This document shows, in pieces, positions 5,679 to 26,027 of a stretch of 64,000 nt of DNA. This DNA is from a virus (Duplodnaviria > Caudoviricetes), in the IMG/VR virus record IMGVR_UViG_3300050159_000048, one strand, 5' to 3'. A program made the position numbers and the translations under genes. Each line of letters starts with the position of its first letter. The stretch's first letter is position 1. The notes beneath the pieces were generated by a model that searched no databases, was not told the origin of the DNA, and saw only the letters and a list, made by a program, of their open reading frames with translations.

Positions 5679-6098
5679 ATGAAACATCTGCTCACATCTA
5701 TTTGCGCCTTAGCCCTGATCCTCACTGGGTGTAGCAAACAAGATGATCAGCCCTTCCACCCAACTAATCTAACTGAACTGCGCTTCCTAGAGCTTTGCAC
5801 TGGAGTATCCATTGTGTCGCGAGGCTCTCAAGACATCGCCTATGCCAATTGTCTTGGGCGCGTTCGTGGCTTCATTGATGGCCATGCAATGACGGTCGTT
5901 GCCAATCCTGATATCGAGCCGCTTTGGTGCGTTAACCAAATGCAGCCGGATATTGAGGTGTACAACGAAATCGTTGACTGGGTTGTCAAGAACCCTGTAA
6001 AATACAAATCCATTGCCGCTGCTGCGCCTCCCGCAACCGCATCAATGATGGTTGCAATTGCCGCAGCACACGAACGATTTCCGTGTAAGGATGAATGA
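5679..6098 (+). CDS. lipoprotein with Rap1a/Tai-like immunity domain
   Basis: lipobox MKHLLTSICALALILTG-C; L..C, CLGRVRGFID, WC, IVDWVVKNP and terminal FPC match the Rap1a pattern. Confidence 0.65.
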   Translation: MKHLLTSICALALILTGCSKQDDQPFHPTNLTELRFLELCTGVSIVSRGSQDIAYANCLGRVRGFIDGHAMTVVANPDIEPLWCVNQMQPDIEVYNEIVDWVVKNPVKYKSIAAAAPPATASMMVAIAAAHERFPCKDE

Positions 6099-6418
6099 TG
6101 ACACCGCCACGCCGCTTGATTGAAGATAAGACCGTTTACGTTGCCACCAGCCCGACGGACCGACTGATGATCACTGCCGCTTCGGAGATTGAGGCGAAGA
6201 TTGAGCTGCTGGATAAACTTGGCTACAAGATTGAGCAAGTTGAAGCATTCCTACTGCTGGACGCCGATTCTGGTGATATCATGGCAAAGCTGAGTGCCAC
6301 ATCACTGGAAACAGCGCTGGATGAAGTTCTATCTGCTGCAAAGTGGAGGATTTCAGAATCAATGGAGTTGCTCGGCGGCTCTCTCGGCGACGGCTTTGGT
6401 GATTTTGAAGACGAATAA
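6095..6418 (+). CDS. hypothetical protein
   Basis: 107-aa ORF with ATGA overlap. Confidence 0.6.
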   Translation: MMTPPRRLIEDKTVYVATSPTDRLMITAASEIEAKIELLDKLGYKIEQVEAFLLLDADSGDIMAKLSATSLETALDEVLSAAKWRISESMELLGGSLGDGFGDFEDE

Positions 6419-6428
6419 GGAGAAACAT

Positions 6429-7028
6429 ATGACCACATCGATTACGCTACGACAAGCGCATAAGCTCGTCGACAAGATTGTCGCCAAGATGCGCACTCTG
6501 ACGATTGAATCCACAAAGCAAGTGAGCGCGTGGGAGCAAGATGAAGTGAGCGCGGTGCTGGAGCGTTTGCGCGGAAAGTTTGAAGAGCAAATTGCTCGCC
6601 AAGTCGCGCTGACGAACGCCCGCCAGGAGCTGCGTGACGCGATCAGCATTGCAAACCGCGCCGCGGTCGACGGCCTAATTTCGCAGCGAAAGGCTTTGCT
6701 GGATCAGGTTGGTATCTACCGCGCGATCCTGGACAGCGCCAGTGAAAACTACATCTCTGATGGGAACGCGCTGGCGCAAAAGCTCTCCGCGATGCGTTCG
6801 GCTGCCCACGCCGGAGCCACGACTCCTTCGTGGGGTGGTTCTGGCGACACCGTCACTGTGTCACTGCTCACCAGCGAGCGACAGACTGTGCTCGAAAAGC
6901 TGGTCAATGACACCCAGCTAAAGATTGAGGCTGTAGAAGACGCACTGACTCAGGCGAATGCTGGCACCAGGGTATGGGTGCCAGCTTCTGCTGAAGCCAC
7001 ACTGCGCCAGGAAGGGCTGATCGCCTAA
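6429..7028 (+). CDS. coiled-coil hypothetical protein
   Basis: TAAGGAG SD before ATG 6429 (MTTSITLRQAHKL). Confidence 0.65.
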   Translation: MTTSITLRQAHKLVDKIVAKMRTLTIESTKQVSAWEQDEVSAVLERLRGKFEEQIARQVALTNARQELRDAISIANRAAVDGLISQRKALLDQVGIYRAILDSASENYISDGNALAQKLSAMRSAAHAGATTPSWGGSGDTVTVSLLTSERQTVLEKLVNDTQLKIEAVEDALTQANAGTRVWVPASAEATLRQEGLIA

Positions 7029-7279
7029 GAATTCGGGTGGAGATTGTTGATAGAATTTGGAAGGGTCTTCGGACCTGACGTCTCTGACGTCGCATCCTAA
7101 TTATATGCAACGGTCAATTGTGTGCAGCTTTGTAATCATAAAGCCCTTGTAACCATTGTTGGATACGAGCTGTACGATCAAGACCATTAATTGCTGGAAT
7201 GTTGGAATGCTGGAGTGTATTGCATCCTCTTTCTGTTGACTTTCTTCACCCCCTCAGCTTGACTCATAAGTAAAACAAT

Positions 7280-9025: not shown

Positions 9026-9628
9026 ATGAAATTGCTACGAGAACTCCTAACTGATGTCAAACGCCTTGATGATCCGTCGTCGGACATAGAAACAGATGAT
9101 TTGGATCAGTTGCTTGCTGATTACGAGCAGGGAGAGAGCGGTGTCCCGAATGAAGAGTCCCCAGAAGGTGATGATGAGCTAGACTTGGATCTAGGCGACG
9201 ACGTTCCGTCTGATGACGACAACATGGGGGTTGAATTTGATTCGTCCTCTCCGCCTAGCAGTGGAGAAGAGTCCCCAGAAGGTGATGATGAGCTAGACTT
9301 GGATCTAGGTGATGAAGGGCTGGGCGGTGATGAGGACATGGATCAGTTGGCGCAACAAGCTACAGAAGATCCTGATCGTGCTGGTGTGATTCGCACAGTG
9401 AAGAACTCACACTTGGTATACAAACGCCAAGCAGAAGATGGTACTTACGACGAACTGTGGGTATACAACGTCAAAGAGTTTGACCCCACTCTACAGGTCA
9501 AGAAGGCAATTCTAGCGGGGACAGACATTCCCCCTGGCAAGTTGCAGTCTGCTGATGGTAAGCAGACTTATACCTCATGGGCTTCAGGTAACGCAGAAAT
9601 GCTGTTGATCAAGGGGTTACCTAACTGA
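9026..9628 (+). CDS. acidic late protein (putative head protein)
   Basis: MKLLRELL start, TAAATA 8997-9002, D/E-rich N-terminal half. Confidence 0.6.
   Translation: MKLLRELLTDVKRLDDPSSDIETDDLDQLLADYEQGESGVPNEESPEGDDELDLDLGDDVPSDDDNMGVEFDSSSPPSSGEESPEGDDELDLDLGDEGLGGDEDMDQLAQQATEDPDRAGVIRTVKNSHLVYKRQAEDGTYDELWVYNVKEFDPTLQVKKAILAGTDIPPGKLQSADGKQTYTSWASGNAEMLLIKGLPN
9152..9309 (+). repeat. exact 44-bp direct repeat
   Basis: GAAGAGTCCCCAGAAGGTGATGATGAGCTAGACTTGGATCTAGG at 9152-9195 and 9266-9309. Confidence 0.95.
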
Positions 9629-9694
9629 TTGTTGTCTTTACGCTTCTGTTTGTAGATAATCCGGTAACGCATAAAATTACAACAGGAGCGTACC

Positions 9695-9964
9695 ATGGAA
9701 CAACAATCATCACCCACAGAACAATCCACAATCAATCAAGAAGCTCGGGATGAGCGCCGGTCCGTGTGGAAGGGTGCAATTGAGCAGGAATTGCAGAGCC
9801 TAATTACCCAAGCTGCAGGAATTCGGCAGCGTATCTCTACCGCAAAAACAGCCACCAAGCGTACGTACTACCAGAAGAAATTCAATAAGATTTCACCCCA
9901 GGTGATGCAGATGGTTGCTGCACTTGAGCGCCTCAACGCCGACAACGGAGACAAAGTTGCATGA
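9695..9964 (+). CDS. hypothetical helical protein
   Basis: AGGAG SD, 89 aa. Confidence 0.65.
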   Translation: MEQQSSPTEQSTINQEARDERRSVWKGAIEQELQSLITQAAGIRQRISTAKTATKRTYYQKKFNKISPQVMQMVAALERLNADNGDKVA

Positions 9965-10371
9965 TTACTCCAGCAGACCAACGTCCAAAGAAGTTTGAGG
10001 ATGTCGAGATTGTAACTGCTAAGATGGAGTTTATCAATCAGGTATACGAAGCGGCCGCAACCATTGCGTATACCGAATACGGGCAGATTAACCCTGCAGA
10101 CGTGGCTCAAGCAGCCCGCATGTTGGTATTAGCCCAAAAGATTCATGTGAATGAATCTGTTACTGTTAGTGATAAGGGATTCAAAGTTATCATCAACGCA
10201 TCAACCGTTGATGATAACACATCAATGAACGCGTTTCGTATGATTTTGAAAGCCCTGAATCAGCTGGATGGATCGCATGGAACGATGATGTTCGGCGATC
10301 CTGTGAGATTTACACTCGCTGAAGTTCCAGAGTTGAGCGCGATGGAGTTGCTATCATCTGCTCCCTTGTAA
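9961..10371 (+). CDS. hypothetical protein
   Basis: ATGA overlap with previous gene. Confidence 0.6.
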   Translation: MITPADQRPKKFEDVEIVTAKMEFINQVYEAAATIAYTEYGQINPADVAQAARMLVLAQKIHVNESVTVSDKGFKVIINASTVDDNTSMNAFRMILKALNQLDGSHGTMMFGDPVRFTLAEVPELSAMELLSSAPL

Positions 10372-11161
10372 CAACATCCATTAGGGTTTGCAGATAATAC
10401 AACACTTCCCAGATGTTAGGAACCAGGCGCTGCCTGTCGTATTCCATATATGGAGTGGAGAAGGCTTCAATCACCTTCTTCACTTCGGCTGCCTTGGAAT
10501 CATCATACCAATAGAACTTGACAATATCAAACTTGTCGCGTTCCCACCACTCCTTTAGTGCTCCAAGCCCCATTGGCTCAACGCCAATAAGCACGACGTT
10601 TTGAGGGGTGCCCTGTTCGTGTACCAAGTACATGACTTGCGTTCGAGCAATCTCTTTCTTTGCTTCTACGATAGCAGCTTGGCGGTTACCCAGCCAATAG
10701 CTCCAGCCCCGCCACTCTTTATACACCAAATCTGGTCGAGCGGGAAGATCGTCAGGCAGATTCCCTGGCATGCGAGCCCAAACCAGCCACTCGTTCATGG
10801 TCTGGAGCTTTAGTTTGTGCACGTACTGGATCGCCTCAATCATTGGGCGCCAAGAGATAGTTGACCGCTTGTTAAACTCGTTGTTTGTGCCTAAGAAGTC
10901 ATTCCAAGACACCCACTCCTTCGTGTATACACGGTACGGAAATTTGGGTATAGTTTTTGGCTTCTCACGCTCCCACCATTCCTGAAACTTACCGCGCGAC
11001 GGCAGCATTTGCTCCCGCATGAACGTACGAGCCTCATCCCACGGAAGGTAGTTCGTGTTGCGACGCCCTGATACCTTTGGTTTGGTCTTCTCTGCAATGC
11101 GAGCGTCGATTTCCTCGTCCGTCAACTCGTCTTCAGGCACGTACTTTGCTGTATCGTTCAT
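10310..11161 (-). CDS. protein with two Trp-rich repeat units (integrase-repeat type), putative DNA binding
   Basis: two copies of EA..........W......P..P...Y.EW..W..(F/W)LG. Confidence 0.5.
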   Translation of the reverse strand: MNDTAKYVPEDELTDEEIDARIAEKTKPKVSGRRNTNYLPWDEARTFMREQMLPSRGKFQEWWEREKPKTIPKFPYRVYTKEWVSWNDFLGTNNEFNKRSTISWRPMIEAIQYVHKLKLQTMNEWLVWARMPGNLPDDLPARPDLVYKEWRGWSYWLGNRQAAIVEAKKEIARTQVMYLVHEQGTPQNVVLIGVEPMGLGALKEWWERDKFDIVKFYWYDDSKAAEVKKVIEAFSTPYMEYDRQRLVPNIWEVLYYLQTLMDVVTREQMIATPSRSTLELQRV

Positions 11162-13395: not shown

Positions 13396-14691
13396 TTAAA
13401 AGGTTTCAGCCTTGATGCGGCGCCAGCCGTGTGTACCGTACACATACACATAATCACCGTCGGCAATCGTGTCGCCGATGTTACCAGGGGACGATGACGA
13501 CATTGGTACAGCTCGTGGCATCATAGGAGCAGAGAATACAAACTCCGTCCACCGGTAATCCGTCGCATACGAACCCTTACCATACTGACCTCGGAACGTG
13601 AATCCTCGACCAGCAAAGTACGACTCACCAGACCTCGTAGGTACGACCGCAACTGCGTCTGGTTCGCCCGGTAGTTCAAAGGAGAACTTCAGGGGAGAAA
13701 CAGAAGTCACTGTTGCAATCTGGCCAGCGCGACCCGACAAAGATCCACGCGGTTTGTTTGCGATCAATACAGTATCGGACGGCTCCAACATAACACCGAA
13801 CCGGTCACCAACAGTGACTGGTCGTTCTAGTACGGAGCGCCAGCCTGTTCCTGTGTGCTGAACTGCGTGGCCGTCCAACCCTTCCCATTCACCTTGTCCG
13901 TTGCTGGAGACAATGAAGGTAAAGTTGTAGGCGTCGTCACGCTCCATCTCAGGAGGTGTTGATAATTGGTCATCGAACAGGTTCGGGTCATAGATGGGTA
14001 GACGCCAAATCACACCGTTCACGAAACTGTCAACGTACTGCTTATTAACAGCGTGTTGAGCGTGAGTTGCTGGCTCTGACAGCTGCAGGCATTTGAAGGT
14101 TTCTGGGAATACAATTGCTTCGTCGGTACTATCCGCACCCAAGCCAATCCATTCTTCTCCGTCCCACACTCGCATCAACTTGATTGACGTGTCGTACCAC
14201 AGCTGTCCGACTAGTGGTGAAACGGGAGGTTGATCATGTGCGAAGTTCTCCAGCATGAATACTAGATTCTGCTGTACCGCTTCACCCCACGACATCCGTT
14301 TACCGTACGTTGATGACCCCTGCCCGAGAAGCAGAAGTGATGTTGCTGGCTTCGGAACAGAATAAGTTAGGGTTAATGGAGCATGGCCAACAACCTCAAT
14401 ATTGGTGCGTTCAATCTTTTCACGCACAGGAATGATCGTTTTGTCATGCTCAAGCATGCTTTGACCATTCACAGTGTACGCGCCAGCTGTAGTTGGATCA
14501 CCATCAACGTTAAACTCAAACCCGTCAACAAAACGAGCGGTAAAATCACCAGAAATGACGAAGTGGTGCACCCCATCAACTGTGTATAACTTTGTGGGCT
14601 GTGCTGTAGACAGATTGTTCGTGCCGTTTGATTCAAACGGCAGAATGTTAGCCACATCAACGCCAGAAGATAACTTAATAGAATAGCTCAT
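13396..14691 (-). CDS. virion structural / tail-associated protein
   Basis: WGEAVQQNLVFMLENFA..P..P..GQLWYD module shared with other fibre genes in the window. Confidence 0.65.
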   Translation of the reverse strand: MSYSIKLSSGVDVANILPFESNGTNNLSTAQPTKLYTVDGVHHFVISGDFTARFVDGFEFNVDGDPTTAGAYTVNGQSMLEHDKTIIPVREKIERTNIEVVGHAPLTLTYSVPKPATSLLLLGQGSSTYGKRMSWGEAVQQNLVFMLENFAHDQPPVSPLVGQLWYDTSIKLMRVWDGEEWIGLGADSTDEAIVFPETFKCLQLSEPATHAQHAVNKQYVDSFVNGVIWRLPIYDPNLFDDQLSTPPEMERDDAYNFTFIVSSNGQGEWEGLDGHAVQHTGTGWRSVLERPVTVGDRFGVMLEPSDTVLIANKPRGSLSGRAGQIATVTSVSPLKFSFELPGEPDAVAVVPTRSGESYFAGRGFTFRGQYGKGSYATDYRWTEFVFSAPMMPRAVPMSSSSPGNIGDTIADGDYVYVYGTHGWRRIKAETF

Positions 14692-16520
14692 ACGCCTGGA
14701 TGGATTAGCACCTCAATCAATGTTCCCACTGCTGGTGCGGTCGCGAACACGATCGAGTTAGATGTATCACCAACCGATCCAACTTCTTGGTATGCTAGAG
14801 CGCGTGGTGGTGTGCTGGTGGAAGTTTGTGATTGAAGAGTAGTGATACTGGTGAACAAGTTCGATCCAGAAGACGGTGCTGTGATCACAACAGCGGATGT
14901 CGGACCGTACACGTCGGATGTTAAGTACAACTCTAAGAACGTACGACGCTGCTCCATGGTAACGGAGATCGATAGCGAGGCTGCTGTGAGTGCCGCATCA
15001 ATCAACATAAACAGCTCACCGTATGTTGGTTGTGATGCAATTGATATGGTGACTGGTACAGCAGCCGCACCGTTCAGCGCTACGTCAAAACCGTACACGC
15101 CAGCTGACAACCCGGTTACTCGCGTATCAATTGCTAGCGGGTCAGTGTGGCTGAATTTAGCCGTTGCCACGCCACGCTCAGACATGTACTTCTTATTGCC
15201 GTCAACAAACACTTGCAACCGATTCGATCCAACGTCATAAGTCTCACCCAAGTTGAAAGTTGTTGTAGTACCGTCGCCATCAATTAGCAGACGGTGGACG
15301 CCGCGGTAAAGTTCTGATACACTCTGATCGAGAATCTGAACAGCGGTGTAAAGCGGAATAAGAGGGTAGCCTGGGGTGCTGTCGGCATTAGCTGCAATCA
15401 CACTACGCGCATACGGCACGGTCATGTTGTAAATGACGGAAGATGCTTCGTGGGTGTGAGTAAACGGAGCCATTTGACCCGAAACAACAACGTCAGCCAT
15501 ACCTGTGCGCGAAAGTGTCAGCAAGCCTGTAGCTGAGCTGTATGAACCAGCATCAACCACGCCGTCGCTTGTACCGCCACCACCAATGCCAGAAACAGCT
15601 GTTGAGATTGCTGTATCAACATAAATCTTGTTGGTTGCGTCTGTGTTGGCGGCAGGATCACCAACAGATTGCAGGCGACGATCGCCAAACGACAACGCGC
15701 CTGTACCAGCGCTAACAAAGATGCCTGCGGCAGTGTCTAGCGTCAGAATACCGGTAATGGTGTCACCGGTCTTGAGTACGCGGTCGTTAACCGTTGCAGT
15801 GACGGCGTTAACGTCGGTGGTCAATTGTGAGTCAGATGCTTGACGATCGGAGGTCTCAGTAACCAACGCAGCTTGTACAGCAGCCACTTGTTGGTCAACA
15901 TACGCCTTGTTTGGAACGTCAATGTTTTGCGTTGGGGCGTCAGCGACAGTAATTACTGTGCCAGAACTTGCTACAATTGAACCAGTCGCTAGAGTCACCG
16001 TACCGTTTACCGTACCACCAGACGTACGCAGGTATCGTGCATCACCTGTCTGCATGTTCAAGGCATCGGTTGCCAGTACAGCATCGCCAAGACCGGTGAT
16101 CCGGTTGCCTGTTAGGTTTAGAATACCCGCAAACGAGGTCATCATTGCCACCCAGCCAGTACCGCCCCATACGTACATGCCTTGTGTCGTTGGGTCGCTT
16201 GGGTAGTTTGGATCTACATAGTCAGCGTTCTTGTACCACATCTGACCCTGCATTGGTGACAAGGGGCGAGACTTGTATGCAAAGTTCTCTGTCAAGTACA
16301 CTAAGTTGTGTTGGATCAACTCACCGTAGTCGGTGATGCCTCGGCCGGCCAGTACCAGCGATGAGTTTGATGTGACAGCGGTTGCGCCTGATGCTGAATT
16401 TACGTACAGGGCAGGAGACCACGGCAGTTGGGTGCCGTCAATCTGGAAAGGCTGGACAATGAATGACCCATTCGCAGGGTCTGTGTGCTGAAATACGTAA
16501 CTCATCTGAGCGAACTCCAA
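14688..16520 (-). CDS. tail fibre-like protein
   Basis: YGELIQHNLVYLTENFA..P..GQMWY module, DAxNKxYVD repeats, T/S/G-rich; TAAATA 16533-16538. Confidence 0.7.
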   Translation of the reverse strand: MEFAQMSYVFQHTDPANGSFIVQPFQIDGTQLPWSPALYVNSASGATAVTSNSSLVLAGRGITDYGELIQHNLVYLTENFAYKSRPLSPMQGQMWYKNADYVDPNYPSDPTTQGMYVWGGTGWVAMMTSFAGILNLTGNRITGLGDAVLATDALNMQTGDARYLRTSGGTVNGTVTLATGSIVASSGTVITVADAPTQNIDVPNKAYVDQQVAAVQAALVTETSDRQASDSQLTTDVNAVTATVNDRVLKTGDTITGILTLDTAAGIFVSAGTGALSFGDRRLQSVGDPAANTDATNKIYVDTAISTAVSGIGGGGTSDGVVDAGSYSSATGLLTLSRTGMADVVVSGQMAPFTHTHEASSVIYNMTVPYARSVIAANADSTPGYPLIPLYTAVQILDQSVSELYRGVHRLLIDGDGTTTTFNLGETYDVGSNRLQVFVDGNKKYMSERGVATAKFSHTDPLAIDTRVTGLSAGVYGFDVALNGAAAVPVTISIASQPTYGELFMLIDAALTAASLSISVTMEQRRTFLELYLTSDVYGPTSAVVITAPSSGSNLFTSITTLQSQTSTSTPPRALAYQEVGSVGDTSNSIVFATAPAVGTLIEVLIHPGV

Positions 16521-16554: not shown

Positions 16555-17838
16555 TCAACTCACCTTTTCAACGTCTCCACCAAATGCCAGCTTGAATGCG
16601 GCCAGCTGAATTGCTCGGTAGTGAGTCTTTTCAATCGCGCAATTAGTATACCACACGTCCTGTCCCAGGTCCAACGGGCATGAACTCTTGCACAACAGAC
16701 GAACCTCACACGATCCGCAATGATCGTCTCGGTTTAGGTTGACACTCTGAATGCGAATGCCTTTGATAAACATCAGGTTTCCGCCGTTATACGACTCGTC
16801 TACGTTTTGACAAGTGCGAACGTTCCCCATCATATCCATAGTGATAAGGCGACTGTCATCAACACCGCAATTCGACTTCAGTAGAGGTTTCTTTTGCGAT
16901 TGCAGTGACCGTGCGTACGGCAGCACTCCCATACCGGTATGAAACAGGTTGTTTGCAAGCAGTGCGCCCTCTCTTGTCTCACCGTACTGTCGGTATTGAT
17001 CCAGATGCGCATCCAAATACCGTGTCAGTATTTCGCGGTACTTCGGGATATCGTCACCTGTGATCACATGCATTGTTGAATTCTCTGTCATCTCCTTGTC
17101 ATATACACGACCGAGTTCGTAACTTAGCTGCTTACGTGGCAGCTGATTACGGTCAAGATAGTCAACAAAGAAGTCGTTAATGCGAAACAGATCGTAATTT
17201 GTGCGGCTAATCACAGGGTTAAAGCTGTACTGCACTTGTTGTGGGCACTCTTCTGCGATCTGCTGAAACACTTCCACCTTTTTGTGAAGAAACTCCTTGC
17301 CACGTAGGGTCTCATGGCCGGGACCGTCGTGAGAGATACCCATCGCAACATTGCCCTTGAGCTGCTTGAAGAAATCAATATGTTTGCGATGTAGTGGCGT
17401 CCCATTGGTGGGGATGTACCACGTAATTCCCTCGCGGTCAAACCTCTCCATTAGTGGAACAATGTCATTCCAATACAAAAGAGTCTCTCCGCCCCACAGC
17501 TCAAACCTCACAAGCTCAGACAAATCCAGATGCCGCTCAATGTTCTTGATCAGGATCGGAGTGACGCCGTTTGCGGCTCGTTCGTTTGGATTACCAATGT
17601 CTTTCTGCATGCAATAACCGCAGCTGTAATTACAGCCTTGACCCAGAGAGATTTTAATCGTTTCTGGTTTCTTGGTTACGTGCAGCGCTCCAAATCGGTC
17701 CTTGAGTTGATCCCACTCCGGCGGCTCAGTAAACGGAGCCGTTAACGGCGTACCATCAACACTATACAGCCCGTTTGTCTTGTTGTCGTAGAGGAATTCT
17801 GTACCAGACGTGGATACTTTGAATTTGGTTGGATTCAT
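16555..17838 (-). CDS. radical SAM / SPASM-domain protein
   Basis: CNYSCGYC, LWGGETLL, SPASM cysteines SNCG..TCQ..HCGSCEVRLLCKSSCP..C. Confidence 0.9.
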   Translation of the reverse strand: MNPTKFKVSTSGTEFLYDNKTNGLYSVDGTPLTAPFTEPPEWDQLKDRFGALHVTKKPETIKISLGQGCNYSCGYCMQKDIGNPNERAANGVTPILIKNIERHLDLSELVRFELWGGETLLYWNDIVPLMERFDREGITWYIPTNGTPLHRKHIDFFKQLKGNVAMGISHDGPGHETLRGKEFLHKKVEVFQQIAEECPQQVQYSFNPVISRTNYDLFRINDFFVDYLDRNQLPRKQLSYELGRVYDKEMTENSTMHVITGDDIPKYREILTRYLDAHLDQYRQYGETREGALLANNLFHTGMGVLPYARSLQSQKKPLLKSNCGVDDSRLITMDMMGNVRTCQNVDESYNGGNLMFIKGIRIQSVNLNRDDHCGSCEVRLLCKSSCPLDLGQDVWYTNCAIEKTHYRAIQLAAFKLAFGGDVEKVS

Positions 17839-18977
17839 GGTTCAGGCTTTGTTATAGTGTACAGAGGAATTACTTGACCTTGCTTCGCTTGATCGCATGT
17901 AGTATCAAACAAACCGTATGGGGTTTCAACCCACCCCTGTTGATTCAGCAGCCTGTATATGCGCGTCCACGGTTTTAGCACCAGATTGGGTACAAAATTG
18001 AAATGTGGGTTTATGGTTACGGATTCTGACACAAATTTGAAGTAGTCGTAATGCTTGTTCTGTGTGGTTATTTCACGCACATATTGTGCGTATAGATCGA
18101 TCTTAGCTTGGAGACCGCGTGAAATGAAATGGTCAACATCATCTAGACTGTCTTTCATGATATCGAACCATGGTGTGCTCTTGCCGGACGTTGCTTGACT
18201 GAGCGTAAGGAAAACAGACGTGTATTGTAGGTACGTTACCTCCGTCAGCACCTGTTTTGGTTCTGAATCCTGAGCAAAAAAGTTGGTTTCTTGATAATCA
18301 ACAGATGCTAAGGATAGTACCTGATTCAATCCCTTGGTGATATCGTCGTGCACACCAACGTGGATATCCTTGCTGTGGGCAAACTCAACTAGTTTTGTAA
18401 CCGGTTCGGATGTTTCGCCACCGATTGTGCGCACAATTACCTTCAGTTTGAGTATTGGTGACCGCGCATGTAGCAGTTCCAATTTGGCAATAATGTCATC
18501 AACGATAGCGCCATTCTTTTTGCTCAGAAACACATCACTAAATGAGATTTCGTACACACTCCTAAAACGCAAGTCGTTCATCATAATCGAGTACTGCTGA
18601 ACAAATGCGTTGTCAGACATTTGCGTAGACACCATGCGGTGAGCGTGACGTACGTAGAATTCAAACAGTGCTGGATGATGATTCTTGAGCAGGTACAAAT
18701 CATCAATCGTGCTTACAGTGTCAAAGAAGTCAAAAAACCGAAGAATCTGACGCTCAGTTGCCTCATCTACCCCCGTTGGAATATACGGAGCAAACTGGTC
18801 ACTGGGTATCCAAGCGTCGCGCAGATAACACATCTGGCACCCCGCTTTGCACATATATCGTGAAAATATTGAGAACACCACCTCTCTGGACATGTTTTCT
18901 AGCGCATCGCCAGCAACAAAGTACTCTTTGAAGTTGTTGCTGGTTAATATCGAAGGTGTTACGTGCCTGTCACTCAT
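17835..18977 (-). CDS. divergent radical SAM protein without SPASM
   Basis: CKAGCQMC (CxxxCxxC) near N-terminus; no C-terminal Cys cluster. Confidence 0.65.
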   Translation of the reverse strand: MSDRHVTPSILTSNNFKEYFVAGDALENMSREVVFSIFSRYMCKAGCQMCYLRDAWIPSDQFAPYIPTGVDEATERQILRFFDFFDTVSTIDDLYLLKNHHPALFEFYVRHAHRMVSTQMSDNAFVQQYSIMMNDLRFRSVYEISFSDVFLSKKNGAIVDDIIAKLELLHARSPILKLKVIVRTIGGETSEPVTKLVEFAHSKDIHVGVHDDITKGLNQVLSLASVDYQETNFFAQDSEPKQVLTEVTYLQYTSVFLTLSQATSGKSTPWFDIMKDSLDDVDHFISRGLQAKIDLYAQYVREITTQNKHYDYFKFVSESVTINPHFNFVPNLVLKPWTRIYRLLNQQGWVETPYGLFDTTCDQAKQGQVIPLYTITKPEP

Positions 18978-20050
18978 ATTCCTACCCAGTGCAGTAGATT
19001 AGGTTTTTGCTTTAACTTCTGCGCGTGTTGGATTGCTACCATCATCATCTGGTAGAACTGAACACATTTGTCCGACTTCGGCTCTGTATCAAACATTCCG
19101 TGGAGATACTTCAACCCACATTCAGCCCTCGACGGGCATGTCCGACACACCGGCTTCAACATCGCATCTTCTTCACTCTCAGTTTTGGAGCGAGAGATAC
19201 TCACGGGAGATCGCCAATGTCCAACGGTAGTTTCCAGACGCTTATACTCCAAGAAGTCAAACTCCGGATACAGATATCCATCTGGCGACAGCACGAGTTG
19301 TTTGTGGTCGTCAAAGTAGTGCTTATCAAACGATTGTCCATGACCATCCACAACAACATCCAACCCAACCACATATAGCATCTGGATGAATTTGATAAAT
19401 GCATCAAAGAACTGGGGTAAATCAATCCGATCGATCAGAACATCAAATTTGTCCTTGCCACGAATGTGTCGCAGAGGGATTAGATTCAATCGTTTAACGC
19501 CTCCCTTAAAGCAAACGTCAGTGATTGCCTTAAGGGCTTGTAGGCTGAATACTTTTGGATTATCCAACGGCATTACGTATTGGAACTGAATCCCCTGCAC
19601 GCCATTCGTGTGCATCATCTGTAGCGTCTCAAAAATCTCAAATTTGGATCGATTCAACTCTTGGAACAAAAAGTCGTAACTAATACTGACTTCCAGCCGA
19701 GGCCCCCATTTTTCAAAGAACCATGCATGCTGAAGCATCTGACTACCATTCGTCTGAATGTAGTACGAGAATGTCTTAGCGGGGATCAGCAGCTCCAACT
19801 CGTCCATCACTCGGTCCATGATTTTGACGTATGAGAACGGCTCCCCTCCATGAAACGTGATTAGTGCAGGCGGATTCTCAACGAACCCAGCCTCCTTGAA
19901 GAAGTTCACAATGTCGGGGATGTCGACGGAGGTCATATGCTGACCTCCGATCGAGTCCTTGATGTAGTCTCGATCACAATATGTGCAGTTGAAGTTGCAC
20001 ACATTACCGAGATAAATCGTTACGCTGTTACATCCGGCTAGGGCGCTCAT
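18974..20050 (-). CDS. radical SAM protein with truncated SPASM-like C-terminus
   Basis: CNFNCTYC, FHGGEP, QTNG, C-terminal CRTCPSRAEC..C; start MSAL gives an ATGA overlap. Confidence 0.88.
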   Translation of the reverse strand: MSALAGCNSVTIYLGNVCNFNCTYCDRDYIKDSIGGQHMTSVDIPDIVNFFKEAGFVENPPALITFHGGEPFSYVKIMDRVMDELELLIPAKTFSYYIQTNGSQMLQHAWFFEKWGPRLEVSISYDFLFQELNRSKFEIFETLQMMHTNGVQGIQFQYVMPLDNPKVFSLQALKAITDVCFKGGVKRLNLIPLRHIRGKDKFDVLIDRIDLPQFFDAFIKFIQMLYVVGLDVVVDGHGQSFDKHYFDDHKQLVLSPDGYLYPEFDFLEYKRLETTVGHWRSPVSISRSKTESEEDAMLKPVCRTCPSRAECGLKYLHGMFDTEPKSDKCVQFYQMMMVAIQHAQKLKQKPNLLHWVGI

Positions 20051-20784
20051 ACGATTAGTTGACTCACTTCGTTCCAAAACTGGATGCGGGCGGCGATAGC
20101 TTCGCGTGCAGCAGTTTCTGCTTCCGCCACCTTCACAGGATCATCTCCGCACAACATCTCTACCACGTGTTTCATTGCTGGGCCATGTGAGTCTGTGTCC
20201 ACTTCAACGTGACGTTCGAGGTAGTATTTGAATTTGGGGGCGGACACGCCGTTGATCTCTAGCTGATCGATGAGTTTTGTAAACATGCTAGGAATGACAA
20301 GCTCGCGCCCGTACGCCAAAGCTGCCGCTACTACGTGTGGTTTGGCTGAGGTAGCATGCGCAATCGTTGTGCGGCAAAATGTCCGCGACGGTGTGGGGAT
20401 ATTGCTGAGGGCCATCAACATTGGTGTACCAGCCTTTAGTTGCTGAATGAAGTTCAACACGTTTGTGGTATCAGCACCAATCTCTCGCATCGCATCAATG
20501 TATAGTTCAAAATGACTCAAAATACCAAATGGCGTTTGATCGGTTTCTTCCCCTGTAACAATTTCGTTAATTAGTCGCCCTATTTCAGGTTGCTGAGAGG
20601 GGAGCCACGGTAAACCCGAAGGGGCGACCGTGTGCTGCAAGGACTTAGTCAACAGCATGAAGTCCCACACAGCAAACACGTGGTGTTCCATCAACACCTT
20701 AACACCGTTGATTGACACGTCAACGGAGAAGATTGGATGGTTGTTCAGTTCGTATGTTAGCTGAGAAACGGAAGGTGTTGTCAT
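20047..20784 (-). CDS. DUF3050-family heme-oxygenase-like (putative diiron) protein
   Basis: MEHHVFAVWDFM, RLINEIVTGEETD, SHFELY, GRE.VIP, YYLERHVEVDTDSHGP. Confidence 0.8.
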   Translation of the reverse strand: MTTPSVSQLTYELNNHPIFSVDVSINGVKVLMEHHVFAVWDFMLLTKSLQHTVAPSGLPWLPSQQPEIGRLINEIVTGEETDQTPFGILSHFELYIDAMREIGADTTNVLNFIQQLKAGTPMLMALSNIPTPSRTFCRTTIAHATSAKPHVVAAALAYGRELVIPSMFTKLIDQLEINGVSAPKFKYYLERHVEVDTDSHGPAMKHVVEMLCGDDPVKVAEAETAAREAIAARIQFWNEVSQLIV

Positions 20785-22496
20785 AGTTTCACGATTTTGT
20801 GTGGTTTGTTGCCGTCTGCTTTGTTCAAAACTAGCATGTGGATCAGCGTAAGATAAAACACTCGTTTGTTGATGTCGTCAATCGTTTGATTGCTGCTTGC
20901 TTGACTTGGGTGGCCAGCGCGAGCCTGCCAGCGCTCGTAGAACGTCTTGACGTCCAAGGGATCGTCGGAGCCAACGTACGGCACAAAACTTTCTGCTTCA
21001 GGCAAACTTGTCTCATTCGACTCAACCATCGTCCAAAACACACCAAGTGTTTCCTGATAGTCGGGAAGATCATTCACCATAGCACTGACACGCTCAGAAG
21101 TGATGTGCTGGCCGGTGATGTGCTTATACATCAAGTGGACAATTGCCTTTGCGAACGCCTTTTGCTCTCCCATTTCGTTAACAGCTGTCCTCAGCTCGTT
21201 GTACTTCTGGATGAACACCTTATGGACAATATCGTCCTGCAAAGCAAGGAACAGACGGACGATGTTCTGACACATATCATCAGGACGAAACAGTTGTCCA
21301 GTGCCTGTATCGGTGTTACCAGCTGGGCATTGGTAGCAGAATCCGCGCAAGTCGCAGGTCTTGCATTGTTCTTCCTTGATAAACATCTCTTCGTATGCGG
21401 TCTGGAAGTTGTGATAGCGATCAACGTACACCAAATTATGCAGAATGTTGCCAAGCATTGTGTGCGGAACGGCTGTTTTCTGGTTGGTAAAGAAGTAGCA
21501 GCCAGAATAGTCGCCAGTTGCATCAACTGCGATCATATCAGAGCCAACCATGCAGTTATTGCCTTCTTTCTGGCCAACACCTTCACTGAATTGGATTTCA
21601 AATCCGGGTAGTGTCTGGAGCAGATGGACAATTGTCTTGTGCAAATTATCCCATTCGGAGGTACTCCACTGGATAAATCCGCCCTTAGAGCTCATCGTCA
21701 ACGGGTGAATAACCATAGTACGCAGGCCTTTCGCGTACAACGTCGTTGCCAGTTCTTCCAAGTACCGGGCATTTTCCACCGCAATAGTGCAGCGAACGCT
21801 GACCATATGATTGTTTTTGTGGAACTCTGGGATCAAGCCAACCATTTCAACAATGCGGTTGATTTTCTCCTGTCCAATTTCGCGGTGATCAACGTCTGCG
21901 CGCAGAGTATCCAGACTGATCGACATACACGTAAACTTATGGGAGAAGTACTCTGCAATGAATTCTGGAGTTAGCAGCAGACCATTGGTAATCATACCAA
22001 TATTCTGCCTATTCGTGTTTTGACGCAGGTCTTCTGCATACTGGCGGAGAAATTGCAGAATTAACTTCTTGTGGATCAGTGGTTCGCCGCCAAAAAATTG
22101 AAACAGTTTCCCGTCATGCTTATTCGCATTTAGTTGGAAGTCATACACTTGTTTCAGCGTCTCGGGCGTGAACCGGCCGTAGTCGTGGCTATGTTGTTCA
22201 TAGCAGTATGAACACGACAGGTTACAAGCGTTTGTAAGGATCAGGTTGACGTGCCGCAGGTCCTTAAATAGATGCGGCACGTGTTCGAGCTTTGCGACTC
22301 GCTCGGCTGGGCCCGGAGCAACCAAGTACTCTGTTAGTTCCTTCTCATGGCCGTCTGGCGTGACAATCGTCTTAATGTTGGTAGCGATTGTACCGTCGGT
22401 ATTGAGGTAGACAGACGGCTTATGAGCATCAAAGCGCTTGTATTGAGCGTCTGTGTATGTCTTTTTGGGATAGAACTTGATTACGCCTGTTTTCAT
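20781..22496 (-). CDS. radical SAM / SPASM protein with N- and C-terminal extensions
   Basis: CNLSCSYC, FFGGEPL, ITNG, SPASM NCMVG..GCYF..CKTCDLRGFCYQCPAG..C. Confidence 0.92.
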   Translation of the reverse strand: MKTGVIKFYPKKTYTDAQYKRFDAHKPSVYLNTDGTIATNIKTIVTPDGHEKELTEYLVAPGPAERVAKLEHVPHLFKDLRHVNLILTNACNLSCSYCYEQHSHDYGRFTPETLKQVYDFQLNANKHDGKLFQFFGGEPLIHKKLILQFLRQYAEDLRQNTNRQNIGMITNGLLLTPEFIAEYFSHKFTCMSISLDTLRADVDHREIGQEKINRIVEMVGLIPEFHKNNHMVSVRCTIAVENARYLEELATTLYAKGLRTMVIHPLTMSSKGGFIQWSTSEWDNLHKTIVHLLQTLPGFEIQFSEGVGQKEGNNCMVGSDMIAVDATGDYSGCYFFTNQKTAVPHTMLGNILHNLVYVDRYHNFQTAYEEMFIKEEQCKTCDLRGFCYQCPAGNTDTGTGQLFRPDDMCQNIVRLFLALQDDIVHKVFIQKYNELRTAVNEMGEQKAFAKAIVHLMYKHITGQHITSERVSAMVNDLPDYQETLGVFWTMVESNETSLPEAESFVPYVGSDDPLDVKTFYERWQARAGHPSQASSNQTIDDINKRVFYLTLIHMLVLNKADGNKPHKIVKL

Positions 22497-23416
22497 AATG
22501 GTACTATGATGTATGTGAATGATGGGTGTTCGTTATAAACTGGTGATCCGATGAAGCCACCAACGTCGTGTGTAATCGTCAATACGCCTATTGTGCCCTT
22601 GCATGGGGTTTGAACTACAAACTTCCCACCCTGTTGCACTACATCAACATTGGAAACCACTTCCCAAGTATCGGTCTGGATATGTGGGTCCAAGTCCGAA
22701 GCTTTAATTGGAGAATATCGCGGATTTAGTAGGTTGATCTCGAAGCTTGACCCAGATACCGCTATGATTCCAGACTGCACTGCCGTCACATTAGCTGAAA
22801 ACCAGGGATCATACAACGCGTGCTTAAAGGTCTCATTGCCTGCGACACGCACCCAAGTGCATTGGCGTTCAATATCAACAAAATCAAAGCCGTCTGTAAC
22901 TCGCACCAAGTCACTGTTGAGGAACATAACGTAGACGGGTAAATGCCCCACTCGAACAAAGGTGGCCAGCGGAACGAGCCTCACACGAGGACCATTATCA
23001 GTTGAGTGAACCGCACCGTTGCGCACGTTCACGATTTGACCATCTTGTTGGCGAGCATATAGGCCCATCGACGGCAGGATCGCAGATTCGTGGATTTGCG
23101 GCAGATTCGTGACTGTTCCTACAAACACGCTCTCATACACACCCGAATCTAAAGCATCCATTGCGGCATGTGCGTAGATTGGAGCCATCATGGATGGCAA
23201 CATCTCTTGGGAGTCTGGATTGATCAAAAAGTGAGCAAAGCTAAAAGCATCTGTGGCATTCATTCGTTGGTCACGAATCATGCGTAAGCCTGGCTTGAAG
23301 TGTGAGAAAAACTCCAATACAAGACTATCCGGCAACGTATCCACGTTCGATAGTTCTTGCATGGTAGCAAACCCTGAGGGACGTTGTCCCTCATCCATCA
23401 CTAACATATAACGCAT
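22493..23416 (-). CDS. uncharacterised protein in the radical SAM operon
   Basis: 307-aa ORF with ATGA overlap to the next rSAM gene; no motif recognised. Confidence 0.65.
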   Translation of the reverse strand: MRYMLVMDEGQRPSGFATMQELSNVDTLPDSLVLEFFSHFKPGLRMIRDQRMNATDAFSFAHFLINPDSQEMLPSMMAPIYAHAAMDALDSGVYESVFVGTVTNLPQIHESAILPSMGLYARQQDGQIVNVRNGAVHSTDNGPRVRLVPLATFVRVGHLPVYVMFLNSDLVRVTDGFDFVDIERQCTWVRVAGNETFKHALYDPWFSANVTAVQSGIIAVSGSSFEINLLNPRYSPIKASDLDPHIQTDTWEVVSNVDVVQQGGKFVVQTPCKGTIGVLTITHDVGGFIGSPVYNEHPSFTYIIVPL

Positions 23417-23422
23417 ATGAAA

Positions 23423-23629
23423 TTACAGAATGCCGCGAGAGCAGTTGCAATTACAATTGCAGTTGCAAGCTGTACTGTAGTCGTCGTAGAAGATGTGGGT
23501 GTGGGATACGAGTTCGTTCAGGATCGTCAGCATGTCCTGGAACACTTGTGCTTGCACAGGATTGTCGGCTGATTGTGCAGCTGGCAGCGTTTGTACAGCG
23601 GTCTTGGTGGAAAGGTTGTCGGTTGTCAT
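23423..23629 (-). CDS. Cys-rich peptide ending in CNCNCNCNC; putative substrate of the rSAM cluster
   Basis: GGAG SD, 68 aa, ends SHTHIFYDDYSTACNCNCNCNCSRGIL; first gene of the coupled cluster. Confidence 0.75.
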   Translation of the reverse strand: MTTDNLSTKTAVQTLPAAQSADNPVQAQVFQDMLTILNELVSHTHIFYDDYSTACNCNCNCNCSRGIL

Positions 23630-23647
23630 ATGTTGGCTCCAATCTTG

Positions 23648-23676
23648 AGTTTACGATGGGTTAAGCATAAAGTCAA
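23648..23676 (-). promoter_or_regulatory. sigma70-like promoter of peptide/rSAM cluster
   Basis: TTGACT-17 nt-TAAACT, 19 nt before ATG 23629. Confidence 0.55.
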
Positions 23677-23679
23677 GCG

Positions 23680-24564
23680 TTACGGTGCTTCGTAGTGCGA
23701 CAACCAGAGAGGTAACACATACGTTGCAGTTGCAACTACGGCTCCTGTCCCAGCGCTTCGAATTTGCACAGCAATCGTTACACTAGAAAAGATGTCAGAT
23801 AGGCCGCCTGGGGGCCATGTGGCTGCTATTCCCACCACTCGAGTCGTCCCCAGGTTGTACCACGTAGACGGTGACATGTTGCCAGCAATCCAGTTAAAGG
23901 TCCCAGATTGCGCAGAAACTGTATACATTACATCATATGCACCCGAGGTGGCTGAATCAACTGGATTCATGTTAATCCATTGTCCACTACTAACAGCTTC
24001 TGATATTCCCGTAGTAGATCCGTAGTATCCGTATGTGTAGTACCACACTAAATTACCATCACTCTGGAATTGTAGATACGTATAACCATCAGCATCGTTG
24101 GCTGTACCGTAGTTAAACGTACGGCTGGATAATGCCACAGAGATGTCGGTAGCGCCTTTGGTGTCATCAACGGTGTGGTTGTGCGACAGCATACCGTTCA
24201 CAAAACCACGAATGTAGTTGATGTCACCGTGATCGATCGGTTCGTCCGCATTAAATGCAATATTGGTAGCTGCATTCCACGCTGGGGACGGGCCGCTGGA
24301 AGTCTTCGTCACATCTTGACCTGTAGTACCGTAAGTAGTTACGTTACCAAATGTGTCAATACCCTGCCTATCCGCTACCGTGTGGTTGTGGCTAGCCATT
24401 GGGTTAATGATGTTTGGAATGAACGAATGCATATCACTAGCCAAAATTGGCTTGTTTGTTTGCATCGATGCCTTGAGGTTGGTAATAGTAGTTTGGATCC
24501 CGGATATTGTGTATCCGGGAGACAGGTTACTTACACCAGATGATGTTACGTTACGCTGTGCCAT
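23680..24564 (-). CDS. tail fibre-associated protein with two SHNH modules
   Basis: two P[IV]..N...SHNHTV.D repeats, then an aromatic beta-rich C-terminal domain; follows a fibre gene. Confidence 0.6.
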   Translation of the reverse strand: MAQRNVTSSGVSNLSPGYTISGIQTTITNLKASMQTNKPILASDMHSFIPNIINPMASHNHTVADRQGIDTFGNVTTYGTTGQDVTKTSSGPSPAWNAATNIAFNADEPIDHGDINYIRGFVNGMLSHNHTVDDTKGATDISVALSSRTFNYGTANDADGYTYLQFQSDGNLVWYYTYGYYGSTTGISEAVSSGQWINMNPVDSATSGAYDVMYTVSAQSGTFNWIAGNMSPSTWYNLGTTRVVGIAATWPPGGLSDIFSSVTIAVQIRSAGTGAVVATATYVLPLWLSHYEAP

Positions 24565-24575
24565 AGGTTAACGCC

Positions 24576-26027
24576 TTATGAATACACAGCTGGGAACACT
24601 TGCCTCCAGCCGCCACCAGGTGGGTACGCGTTTGCAGGGCCACCAGTACCGGACGTAGCTGCCATGTAGATGCGGCCGTAAGCAATAGCAATGTCGCCAG
24701 CTTTGTATGTACCAGAACCGGAATAGATTACTGCAGTACCAGTACTACCAGCCACAGCTGCTGCAATTGCGCTGTTCATCTGACCGAGGTTAACAGCGTC
24801 ATTTGCAGTCGAGCCCGCCGTCACGTTACGAATTTGTGCACCAACCTGAAGCTGACCAGCAATTGTCAGATTACCGTTGGTGTCAATATACAGTGGACGG
24901 TTCGGTGTGTTAGACGTACGACCAGGGCCGCCTGAACCAATAAACATGCGGTTGCTGGAGTCGATACCCATCACCCAACCAATTTGGCCAGCGCGTGTCA
25001 TACCGTAGTAGCCGTAGTTATTGGTGTCAGCAGGCATGGTGACAGAATCAAAACCGTACGGATCATCAGCCACACCAGACGGATATGCGGAGATACCGCC
25101 GCGGGCGTGGAGTACGGAATTCGACAGAATTGTACCGGTTGTAGTGATCGTGCTCTGCACTGTCAGAGCACCTGTTAGCGTACCACCTGACAAAGGTAGG
25201 TAAGATCCGCTACCAGCACCAGATACTGCCGTGTCCACATATGTTTTGGTAGCCGCATCAGCACCTGCGACAGGAGCGCCGAGGTTTGAGATGCGGTTGG
25301 TATTCATGTCGATGATACCAGATGCCTGCGACGAACTAGCGCCTGTTGGGCCGAGAATCTCTTGCCATGCAGAACCAGTGTACACAGACAAGTTGCCTGT
25401 GGATTCGTTGTACCACAGCATACCCACCTGAGGTGCGCCCGGAGCCGTGCCAGTGGACACGAAAGTTGTCACTGGAGATGACCAACCCTCTGGCGACGCT
25501 TGATCAAAAACATGCACAACCATTCGGGGGATTACTGAAGCAGTTGGAGCAGCCGTTCCTGTGAAGTACGAACGCTTAATGAACGCTTCCGGCTCATACT
25601 TACCGAGACTGTAGTAACCCCACAGAGAAGTGCCGTCATACCAGTATTGACCAGTGACTGGAGAGGTCGGTTGTGTTGTAGCTACAACACCGCTACCGTT
25701 CAACAGCTTCCATTTGTTTGCAGCTGTTTCGGTAAGGTCATAGTAGTACCAGCCCTGCGAAGTGCCGGCGGTAGTGTTGTGGAAGTATAGCTTGCGTTCA
25801 CACCACATCTGTCCGCTGATTGCCACTGTTGGTGGGGAGGCAGATGCGAAGTTTTCTGTCAACCGGACGAAGTTCTCATTGACAGCTTCACCCCACTCAA
25901 CCGCACCGCGACCGAACAAACGTAGTGATGTTCCCTGAATGGAACTGTTAGGGCCGCTTTGACTTCCTGGTGGAATATCAAATGAGGTTGCTAGCGGATC
26001 TGAGTAATTGATTGTATAGACAGCCAT
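24576..26027 (-). CDS. tail fibre-like protein
   Basis: WGEAVNENFVRLTENFA module, P..GQYWYD, DAATKTYVD, YLPLSGGTLTG; exact TATAAATA at 26061-26068. Confidence 0.75.
   Translation of the reverse strand: MAVYTINYSDPLATSFDIPPGSQSGPNSSIQGTSLRLFGRGAVEWGEAVNENFVRLTENFASASPPTVAISGQMWCERKLYFHNTTAGTSQGWYYYDLTETAANKWKLLNGSGVVATTQPTSPVTGQYWYDGTSLWGYYSLGKYEPEAFIKRSYFTGTAAPTASVIPRMVVHVFDQASPEGWSSPVTTFVSTGTAPGAPQVGMLWYNESTGNLSVYTGSAWQEILGPTGASSSQASGIIDMNTNRISNLGAPVAGADAATKTYVDTAVSGAGSGSYLPLSGGTLTGALTVQSTITTTGTILSNSVLHARGGISAYPSGVADDPYGFDSVTMPADTNNYGYYGMTRAGQIGWVMGIDSSNRMFIGSGGPGRTSNTPNRPLYIDTNGNLTIAGQLQVGAQIRNVTAGSTANDAVNLGQMNSAIAAAVAGSTGTAVIYSGSGTYKAGDIAIAYGRIYMAATSGTGGPANAYPPGGGWRQVFPAVYS

Follow-up and report, generated by a model that had tools for sequence, protein, structure and literature searches.

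Why should a short cysteine-rich peptide, encoded beside radical SAM (rSAM) genes, carry the same HxH module as a larger protein encoded next to it in the fibre gene block of a tailed phage? The question arises from a gene cluster in the window, the whole 64,000-nucleotide stretch of viral DNA analysed here, which belongs to a single 174.6-kb contig genome. Peptide clusters with radical SAM genes are usually taken to be factories of released natural products. Our preferred answer for this cluster, to which we give a probability of roughly 55%, is that the module is an assembly element common to two paralogous partners, through which the Cys peptide and the neighbouring 294-aa protein would act as one unit, and not only a leader for the rSAM enzymes.

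All features given below with window coordinates lie on the minus strand. Fibre A (483 aa; 24576..26027), a fibre-like protein with one weak YadA_stalk match and PHROG matches to virion structural, tail and tail-fibre families, is encoded directly upstream of the 294-aa module protein (23680..24564), in which residues 1-137 make up a conserved two-module core and residues 138-294 a variable beta-sandwich domain. The 68-aa Cys peptide (23423..23629) comes next, followed by a 307-aa cassette protein (22493..23416) and by an enzyme block (16555..22496) comprising a 571-aa rSAM/SPASM enzyme (20781-22496), a DUF3050 heme-oxygenase-like protein (20047-20784), a 367-aa rSAM enzyme (18974-20077), a divergent 380-aa protein taken from the ORF list (17835-18977) and a 427-aa rSAM enzyme (16555-17838), the rSAM and DUF3050 assignments coming from Pfam, NCBIfam and PHROG. 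After the cassette stand fibre B (610 aa; 14688..16520) and a further fibre-like gene from the ORF list (13396-14691). The fibre-A gene type is also found 5' of the module protein in six other loci (L004, L005, L006, L010, L012 and L027). Fibre A ends in a conserved W[RK]Q[IV]xPA[VT]Y, always just before the module-protein gene (window, L005, L006, L010, L012 and L027), and this end may be a candidate docking site. The fibre genes flanking the cassette, namely fibres A and B in the window and their counterparts in L005, L006, L010, L012 and L027, have an N-terminal domain in common.

Neither Pfam nor NCBIfam had a match to the peptide or to the 294-aa and 307-aa proteins. The peptide had a weak PHROG match (phrog_31780), and the sole PHROG match of the 294-aa protein was phrog_11610, of unknown function, on its C-terminal domain. 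In the phage collection, tblastn with the peptide matched only RP12 and RP31, whereas tblastn with the 294-aa protein and megablast with the region gave no match there; a word-index search with the 307-aa protein found only itself.

The module comprises about 32 aa, an amphipathic helix followed by an invariant HxHxxxD, and is present once in the peptide (residues 18-49; 23483..23578; H43-x-H45-xxx-D49) and twice in the 294-aa protein, as module 1 (residues 33-66; 24367..24468; H59-x-H61-xxx-D65; module HMM domain i-E 1.9e-4) and module 2 (residues 104-135; 24160..24255; H128-x-H130-xxx-D134; i-E 9.2e-8). The first-pass annotation had claimed a 30-aa SHxH module common to the peptide and, in two copies, to the 294-aa protein, and this is confirmed: residues 22-50 of the peptide align with residues 37-65 and 107-134 of the larger protein, where they had been placed, and the family profiles are clear. 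The shuffled controls agree only in part, as the pairwise alignment of peptide and 294-aa protein is marginal (local score 52; shuffles 27 +/- 4.4; 3 of 2000 as high) but the internal repeat of the 294-aa protein is not (score 67; shuffles 31 +/- 5; 0 of 2000 as high). We nevertheless judge the homology of the module to be real, because it is settled by profiles at the family level. Profiles built from the module copies, a search that had likewise been proposed, gave reciprocal family matches without false positives among 3129 ORFs (the 174.6-kb genome plus the loci). An HMM from the 49 peptide clusters only matched the neighbouring module proteins in eight loci (E 1e-7 to 0.016) and nothing else at E<=10 among these ORFs, failing to reach the window's own 294-aa protein and its L006 counterpart. 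A single-module HMM from module proteins only matched every Cys peptide (E 3e-8 to 6.5e-4; 3e-6 for the window peptide) and nothing besides the peptides in the same set. Profile-profile comparison by hhalign aligned the peptide module to module 2 of the 294-aa protein (probability 88.8%, E 2.5e-6). Across 129 module proteins, H59, H61, H128 and H130 never vary and D65 and D134 hardly do; in the 49 peptides, H43, H45 and D49 are invariant. Judged by their sequences, the peptide and the module protein are paralogues.

The 49 homologous peptide clusters vary in their N-terminal 25 residues, and both the module and the Cys-Asn tail (residues 53-68; 23426..23473), the presumed rSAM substrate, are nearly invariant. 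In the tail, C57, N58 and C59 are invariant and C55, N56, N60, C61 and C63 nearly so. The first-pass annotation had offered, as one of two readings, a shared recognition leader that would make the larger protein a second substrate. In its strict form, this reading gives the module no function beyond recognition by the maturases and casts the 294-aa protein as a decoy or a further substrate; it draws on the position of the peptide gene, directly upstream of rSAM/SPASM maturase-like genes, and on the precedent of NHLP and Nif11, RiPP classes in which leaders derived from protein domains are known. Against it, the peptide has an invariant 'core' and a variable N-terminus, the reverse of the usual RiPP pattern. 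The combination of conserved leader, variable core and cleavage motif was not found in the 49 peptides, and no GG or GA cleavage site is conserved in their clusters. The homologous Cys-peptide gene in RP12 (65 aa; L001 8932-9129, corresponding to about 82888-83085 of AP017924.1) carries no annotation in the GenBank record, where it falls in the gap between ORF074 and ORF075.

The pairing of the two genes is widely conserved. A tail-bearing peptide adjoins a module protein in about 30 loci of the viral and metagenome collections, including Ralstonia phage RP12, and does so in every locus long enough to judge; in a few of them the 300-aa gene (the family of the 307-aa protein) alone stands between the two. 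Genes of the 300-aa family and rSAM genes come next wherever the locus sequence extends far enough. The Ralstonia jumbo phage RP12 has the same cluster, with two modules in ORF074 (125 aa), and its rSAM genes are merely listed in the RP12 genome paper; our literature search found no description of this cluster or of the module family. In L011 (8600-9661), and also in L022, the peptide and 300-aa genes are separated by an inserted GIY-YIG homing-endonuclease gene of opposite orientation. A distant cassette in L025 (1078-2627) has other upstream fibres, a Peptidase_S74 fibre and a collagen-like 231-aa protein; the fibre types differ, and the cassette therefore appears to travel between fibre contexts.

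Nearly all loci have two modules in the module protein and one peptide. L004 departs from this count, combining a one-module protein of 98 aa with two tandem Cys peptides (66 and 57 aa) before the rSAM gene (5779-7177); a 238-aa gene occupies the position of the 300-aa gene there, and the 300-aa family profile gave no match to it. Another one-module protein is P0193, and L012, a 2.2-kb contig, encodes a one-module protein with no peptide after it. A count of three modules per unit would fit the 2+1, 1+2 and fused arrangements (the last described below), and it is not universal, given L012.

Two variant loci bear most directly on what the module does. L027, a contig of 36 kb, shows synteny with the window: the clamp loaders are 47% identical, the fibre A proteins 41% and the SODs 44%, and fibre B matches an L027 gene of 591 aa over its full length at 36%. 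A two-module protein (P0200) follows fibre A there, the gene of a 52-aa peptide overlaps its stop by 4 nt, and fibre B comes directly after the peptide. This peptide is clearly recognised by the peptide HMM (E 1e-11) and ends in ...DDYS, at the residue before the start of the Cys-Asn tail in all other peptides. No rSAM, 300-aa or DUF3050 gene was found in the 16.8 kb examined of this contig, 7.8 kb of it downstream, so that the strict co-occurrence with maturases expected of a RiPP leader is not seen over this distance. In L010, both modules recur in the protein P0174 (66% identity to P0200) and are followed by a whole embedded tail-less peptide (56% identity, E 2e-18) and then by a different C-terminal domain; the fusion puts all three modules in one chain, and a fibre-B-type gene follows directly. 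Between L027 and L010, synonymous sites are saturated in the peptide part while motif and frame are kept, and modules 1-2 have a dN/dS of about 0.3. Both variants, tail-less and fused, count as one lineage (two contigs from different runs of one study). A scan of viral contigs with the 52-aa peptide for more tail-less systems gave two low-complexity false matches without the module, a metagenome scan with P0200 gave no match, and the 11 loci found with the pattern H[TV]H[SVI]FxD[DN]Y were all tail-bearing.

Since L027 keeps the module pair without rSAM genes in the stretch examined, a role of the module would need no rSAM enzymes, and it is best read, from these loci, as a role with the partner protein that is independent of them. 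The persistence of the pair in a syntenic phage whose locus lacks rSAM genes, and even as a tail-less peptide fused into the module protein in L010, disfavours the shared recognition leader, together with a second-substrate role for the larger protein, whose core is predicted to be compact (pLDDT 87), unlike a disordered substrate, and has neither a conserved Cys nor a conserved Cys-rich stretch. We consider it very improbable that the module is a leader and nothing else.

Clustered at 50% identity, the module-protein family comprises 258 clusters, most of them of about 130 aa with two modules; it is uncharacterised and has neither a Pfam entry nor a solved fold. The AF2 model of the core (residues 1-140; alignment of 129 sequences) reached pLDDT 87.3 and pTM 0.75 and consists of helices 20-33, 42-57 and 112-126 with a small hairpin; both module helices (42-57 in module 1 and 112-126 in module 2) are predicted to lie in one compact domain. 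The module protein had no PDB sequence match at E<=1 and no Pfam match. For the core, Foldseek returned nothing at E<=0.001 in the PDB, VIA-align gave only generic helical bundles (Z<=5.2), and the fold search among viral models matched the RP12 orthologue only. Whole domains are inserted in the linker between the modules (beta-propeller, Gly_rich_2 and others), and beta-sandwich and Hint domains are appended in further members. A two-module core that accepts whole-domain insertions is likely a scaffold for host-range variation. A Hint (intein-like) autoprocessing domain ends several module proteins (L009 5570-6979; P0066, P0094 and P0154), which suggests self-cleavage or transfer of the C-terminus in those proteins.

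The module protein could also stay out of the virion, serving the peptide as an intracellular chaperone or scaffold or taking part in tail-fibre assembly. Its gene stands directly after a fibre gene, a position typical of fibre assembly proteins, and it is not among the proteins identified in RP31 virions. On the other side, the large variable domains (beta-propeller, Gly-rich, beta-sandwich and Hint) look like display or binding domains and not like parts of a chaperone, and there is no Caudo_TAP or other Pfam match. Taking both sides together, we regard this explanation as improbable. The RP31 virion proteome, which comprises 32 proteins from gel bands, contains none of the orthologues ORF68-76; the peptide has few tryptic sites, and we treat the result as a weak negative.

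In the assembly reading that we prefer, the core of about 130 aa would fold into a helical bundle with its two modules side by side, and the peptide would contribute the third module in trans. This would complete a unit of pseudo-threefold symmetry and bring the three HxH(xxxD) motifs together, probably as a six-His metal site like those on the threefold axes of phage fibres. The Cys-Asn tail would thereby be held on a protein with variable display domains that is encoded in the fibre gene block, and the tail would belong, with the 307-aa protein and the rSAM enzymes, to an optional add-on cassette.

A complex of the core, peptide residues 18-68 and Fe was predicted with ipSAE values of 0.63, 0.42 and 0.47 (median 0.47) against 0.00 for the best control, a result for which the tool's verdict is 'weak support' and which was obtained with custom alignments and a ligand, outside the tool's calibration. 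In that calibration 58 of 80 solved complexes came up to the ipSAE mark, as did 2 of 110 mismatched pairs, and the passes at 0.60 or under comprised 7 of the 80 solved complexes and both mismatches. The predicted interface involves core residues 61, 63, 129-130 and 132 and peptide residues 40-49, with all three HxH motifs close together. The second reading of the first-pass annotation, a metal-bound assembly motif that docks the modified peptide onto the fibre, fits the comparative data and gains weak support from this prediction insofar as the peptide would dock onto the larger protein; the arrangement predicted is 2+1, however, and not a homotrimer.

Alternatively, each protein might trimerise alone, as T4 gp37 does, the similarity of the modules reflecting common descent only. 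In the passage of PMC11705849 that cites the T4 gp37 structure, known fibre HxH sites come from three identical chains, and one-module proteins do exist (P0193 and the L004 protein). But AF2 packs both modules in one chain with high confidence, the gene fusion puts three modules in one chain, and the complex prediction scored 0.47 where the controls scored 0.00, all of which makes separate homotrimers exceedingly improbable.

By jackhmmer, the 307-aa family comprises 22 locus ORFs, some from duplicate contigs, and is absent from L027; genes of this family, the tail and the rSAM genes occur either all together or not at all. From this distribution, the Cys tail appears to form a single optional cassette with the 300-aa protein and the enzymes. 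The AF2 model of the 307-aa protein (pLDDT 83, pTM 0.82) is beta-rich with a C-terminal Ig-like domain, residues 196-307 scoring Z 5-7 to many Ig-like domains and Z 6.0 to a phage GP4 fibre-tail adaptor, a Z range that the tool rates as common; no enzyme fold was recognised in a fold search of the model. In L016, two tandem paralogues of the 300-aa cassette protein are encoded (9120-10046 and 10079-10915). The 571-aa enzyme scored best in NCBIfam against PapB (110.5 bits; cut-off 340) and second against QhpD (80.9 bits; cut-off 453). Assignments as a PapB-type ranthipeptide or a QhpD-type thioether maturase were rejected, both scores falling below the curated cut-offs, and by its profile matches the enzyme is placed as a member of the rSAM/SPASM superfamily only. 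In the available locus DNA, DUF3050 (HamA_HO-like in Pfam) is found in only some cassettes (window, L001, L004, L009, L011, L021 and L039), and it looks like an accessory rather than a core step.

How the enzymes would recognise the peptide invites a further reading of dual use, in which the module, besides linking peptide and module protein, acts as a leader-like recognition element for the rSAM enzymes or the 307-aa protein, the assembled pair possibly being the substrate. The module is the only conserved peptide region upstream of the tail, the strict co-presence or co-absence of the 307-aa protein, tail and rSAM genes agrees with such a coupling, and no PqqD-like Pfam match was found at E<=0.1 in any cluster protein, so that another recognition mode may be needed. 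Dual use adds to the assembly reading rather than replacing it, and we hold it to be rather unlikely.

The first-pass annotation had linked the rSAM cluster to the virion under either of its readings, and this link is suggested by gene context. A more specific proposal, which we put forward only tentatively and hold to be a good deal short of even odds, is that peptide and module protein form a two-chain pseudo-threefold His-x-His unit at the fibre, in which the Cys-Asn tail of the small subunit is cross-linked by four radical SAM enzymes, giving a RiPP-like structural or receptor-contacting part of the virion and not a released product. The conserved N-terminal part of the precursor copies the repeated module of its neighbour and keeps its partner in a phage locus without rSAM enzymes; these two facts point to the modified peptide as a subunit of a complex encoded among the fibre genes. 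To our knowledge, no rSAM-modified phage structural component has been known before, and the peptide, if it is in the virion, would be the first.

Several known systems resemble this one in part. The short precursors of the NHLP and Nif11 RiPP classes resemble the peptide in that their N-terminal part shares homology with a domain from a larger protein. Those leaders serve enzyme recognition and are then cleaved off, whereas here the homologous part persists without a maturase; the peptides also have an invariant core and lack a conserved cleavage motif. T2/S16 gp38-type tip adhesins and tail-fibre assembly proteins are likewise encoded directly downstream of a fibre gene, and they too join a small conserved part for attachment to domains that vary strongly, Gly-rich ones among them (compare PF21722 in the module protein P0128). 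No homology to either group was detected, and in our case the attachment part would be a two-module bundle that apparently needs a separately encoded peptide. An assignment of the 294-aa protein as a tail-fibre assembly protein (Caudo_TAP) was rejected, phrog_11610 being its only family match.

Metal-binding HxH sites are familiar in phage fibres and spikes, with seven Fe ions in the T4 gp37 needle and further sites in gp12 and in the P2 gpV spike. The first-pass annotation had drawn a parallel to gp37, in which HxH motifs of three chains bind iron, as stated where PMC11705849 cites the gp37 structure. The HxH motif itself upholds the parallel: His-x-His is strictly conserved in proteins of a fibre gene block, and by analogy three motifs would be expected to meet with six His ligands. 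It does not extend to sequence or fold, since Pfam, PDB sequence, Foldseek and VIA-align searches revealed no similarity of the module proteins to T4 gp37 or gp12. The motif here follows an alpha-helix in a helical bundle and has a conserved Asp four residues later, and the motifs are predicted to come from two different chains (2+1), unlike the gp37 homotrimer. The likeness would thus be one of motif and logic, not of homology.

On the side of the modified peptide, a known counterpart is QhpC, the small Cys-rich subunit of quinohemoprotein amine dehydrogenase that is cross-linked by the rSAM enzyme QhpD. As with QhpC, a small Cys-rich polypeptide is probably cross-linked by an rSAM/SPASM enzyme and would then be kept as a subunit of a complex, not released. 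The peptide tail alternates Cys and Asn, whereas QhpC pairs Cys with Asp or Glu, the 571-aa enzyme scores far below the QhpD family cut-off (81 against 453 bits), and the setting is a phage fibre locus. Going by gene content and homology, what appears to be new here is that the precursor of a RiPP-like rSAM cluster, situated in a phage fibre locus, has a putative assembly domain in common with its partner protein.
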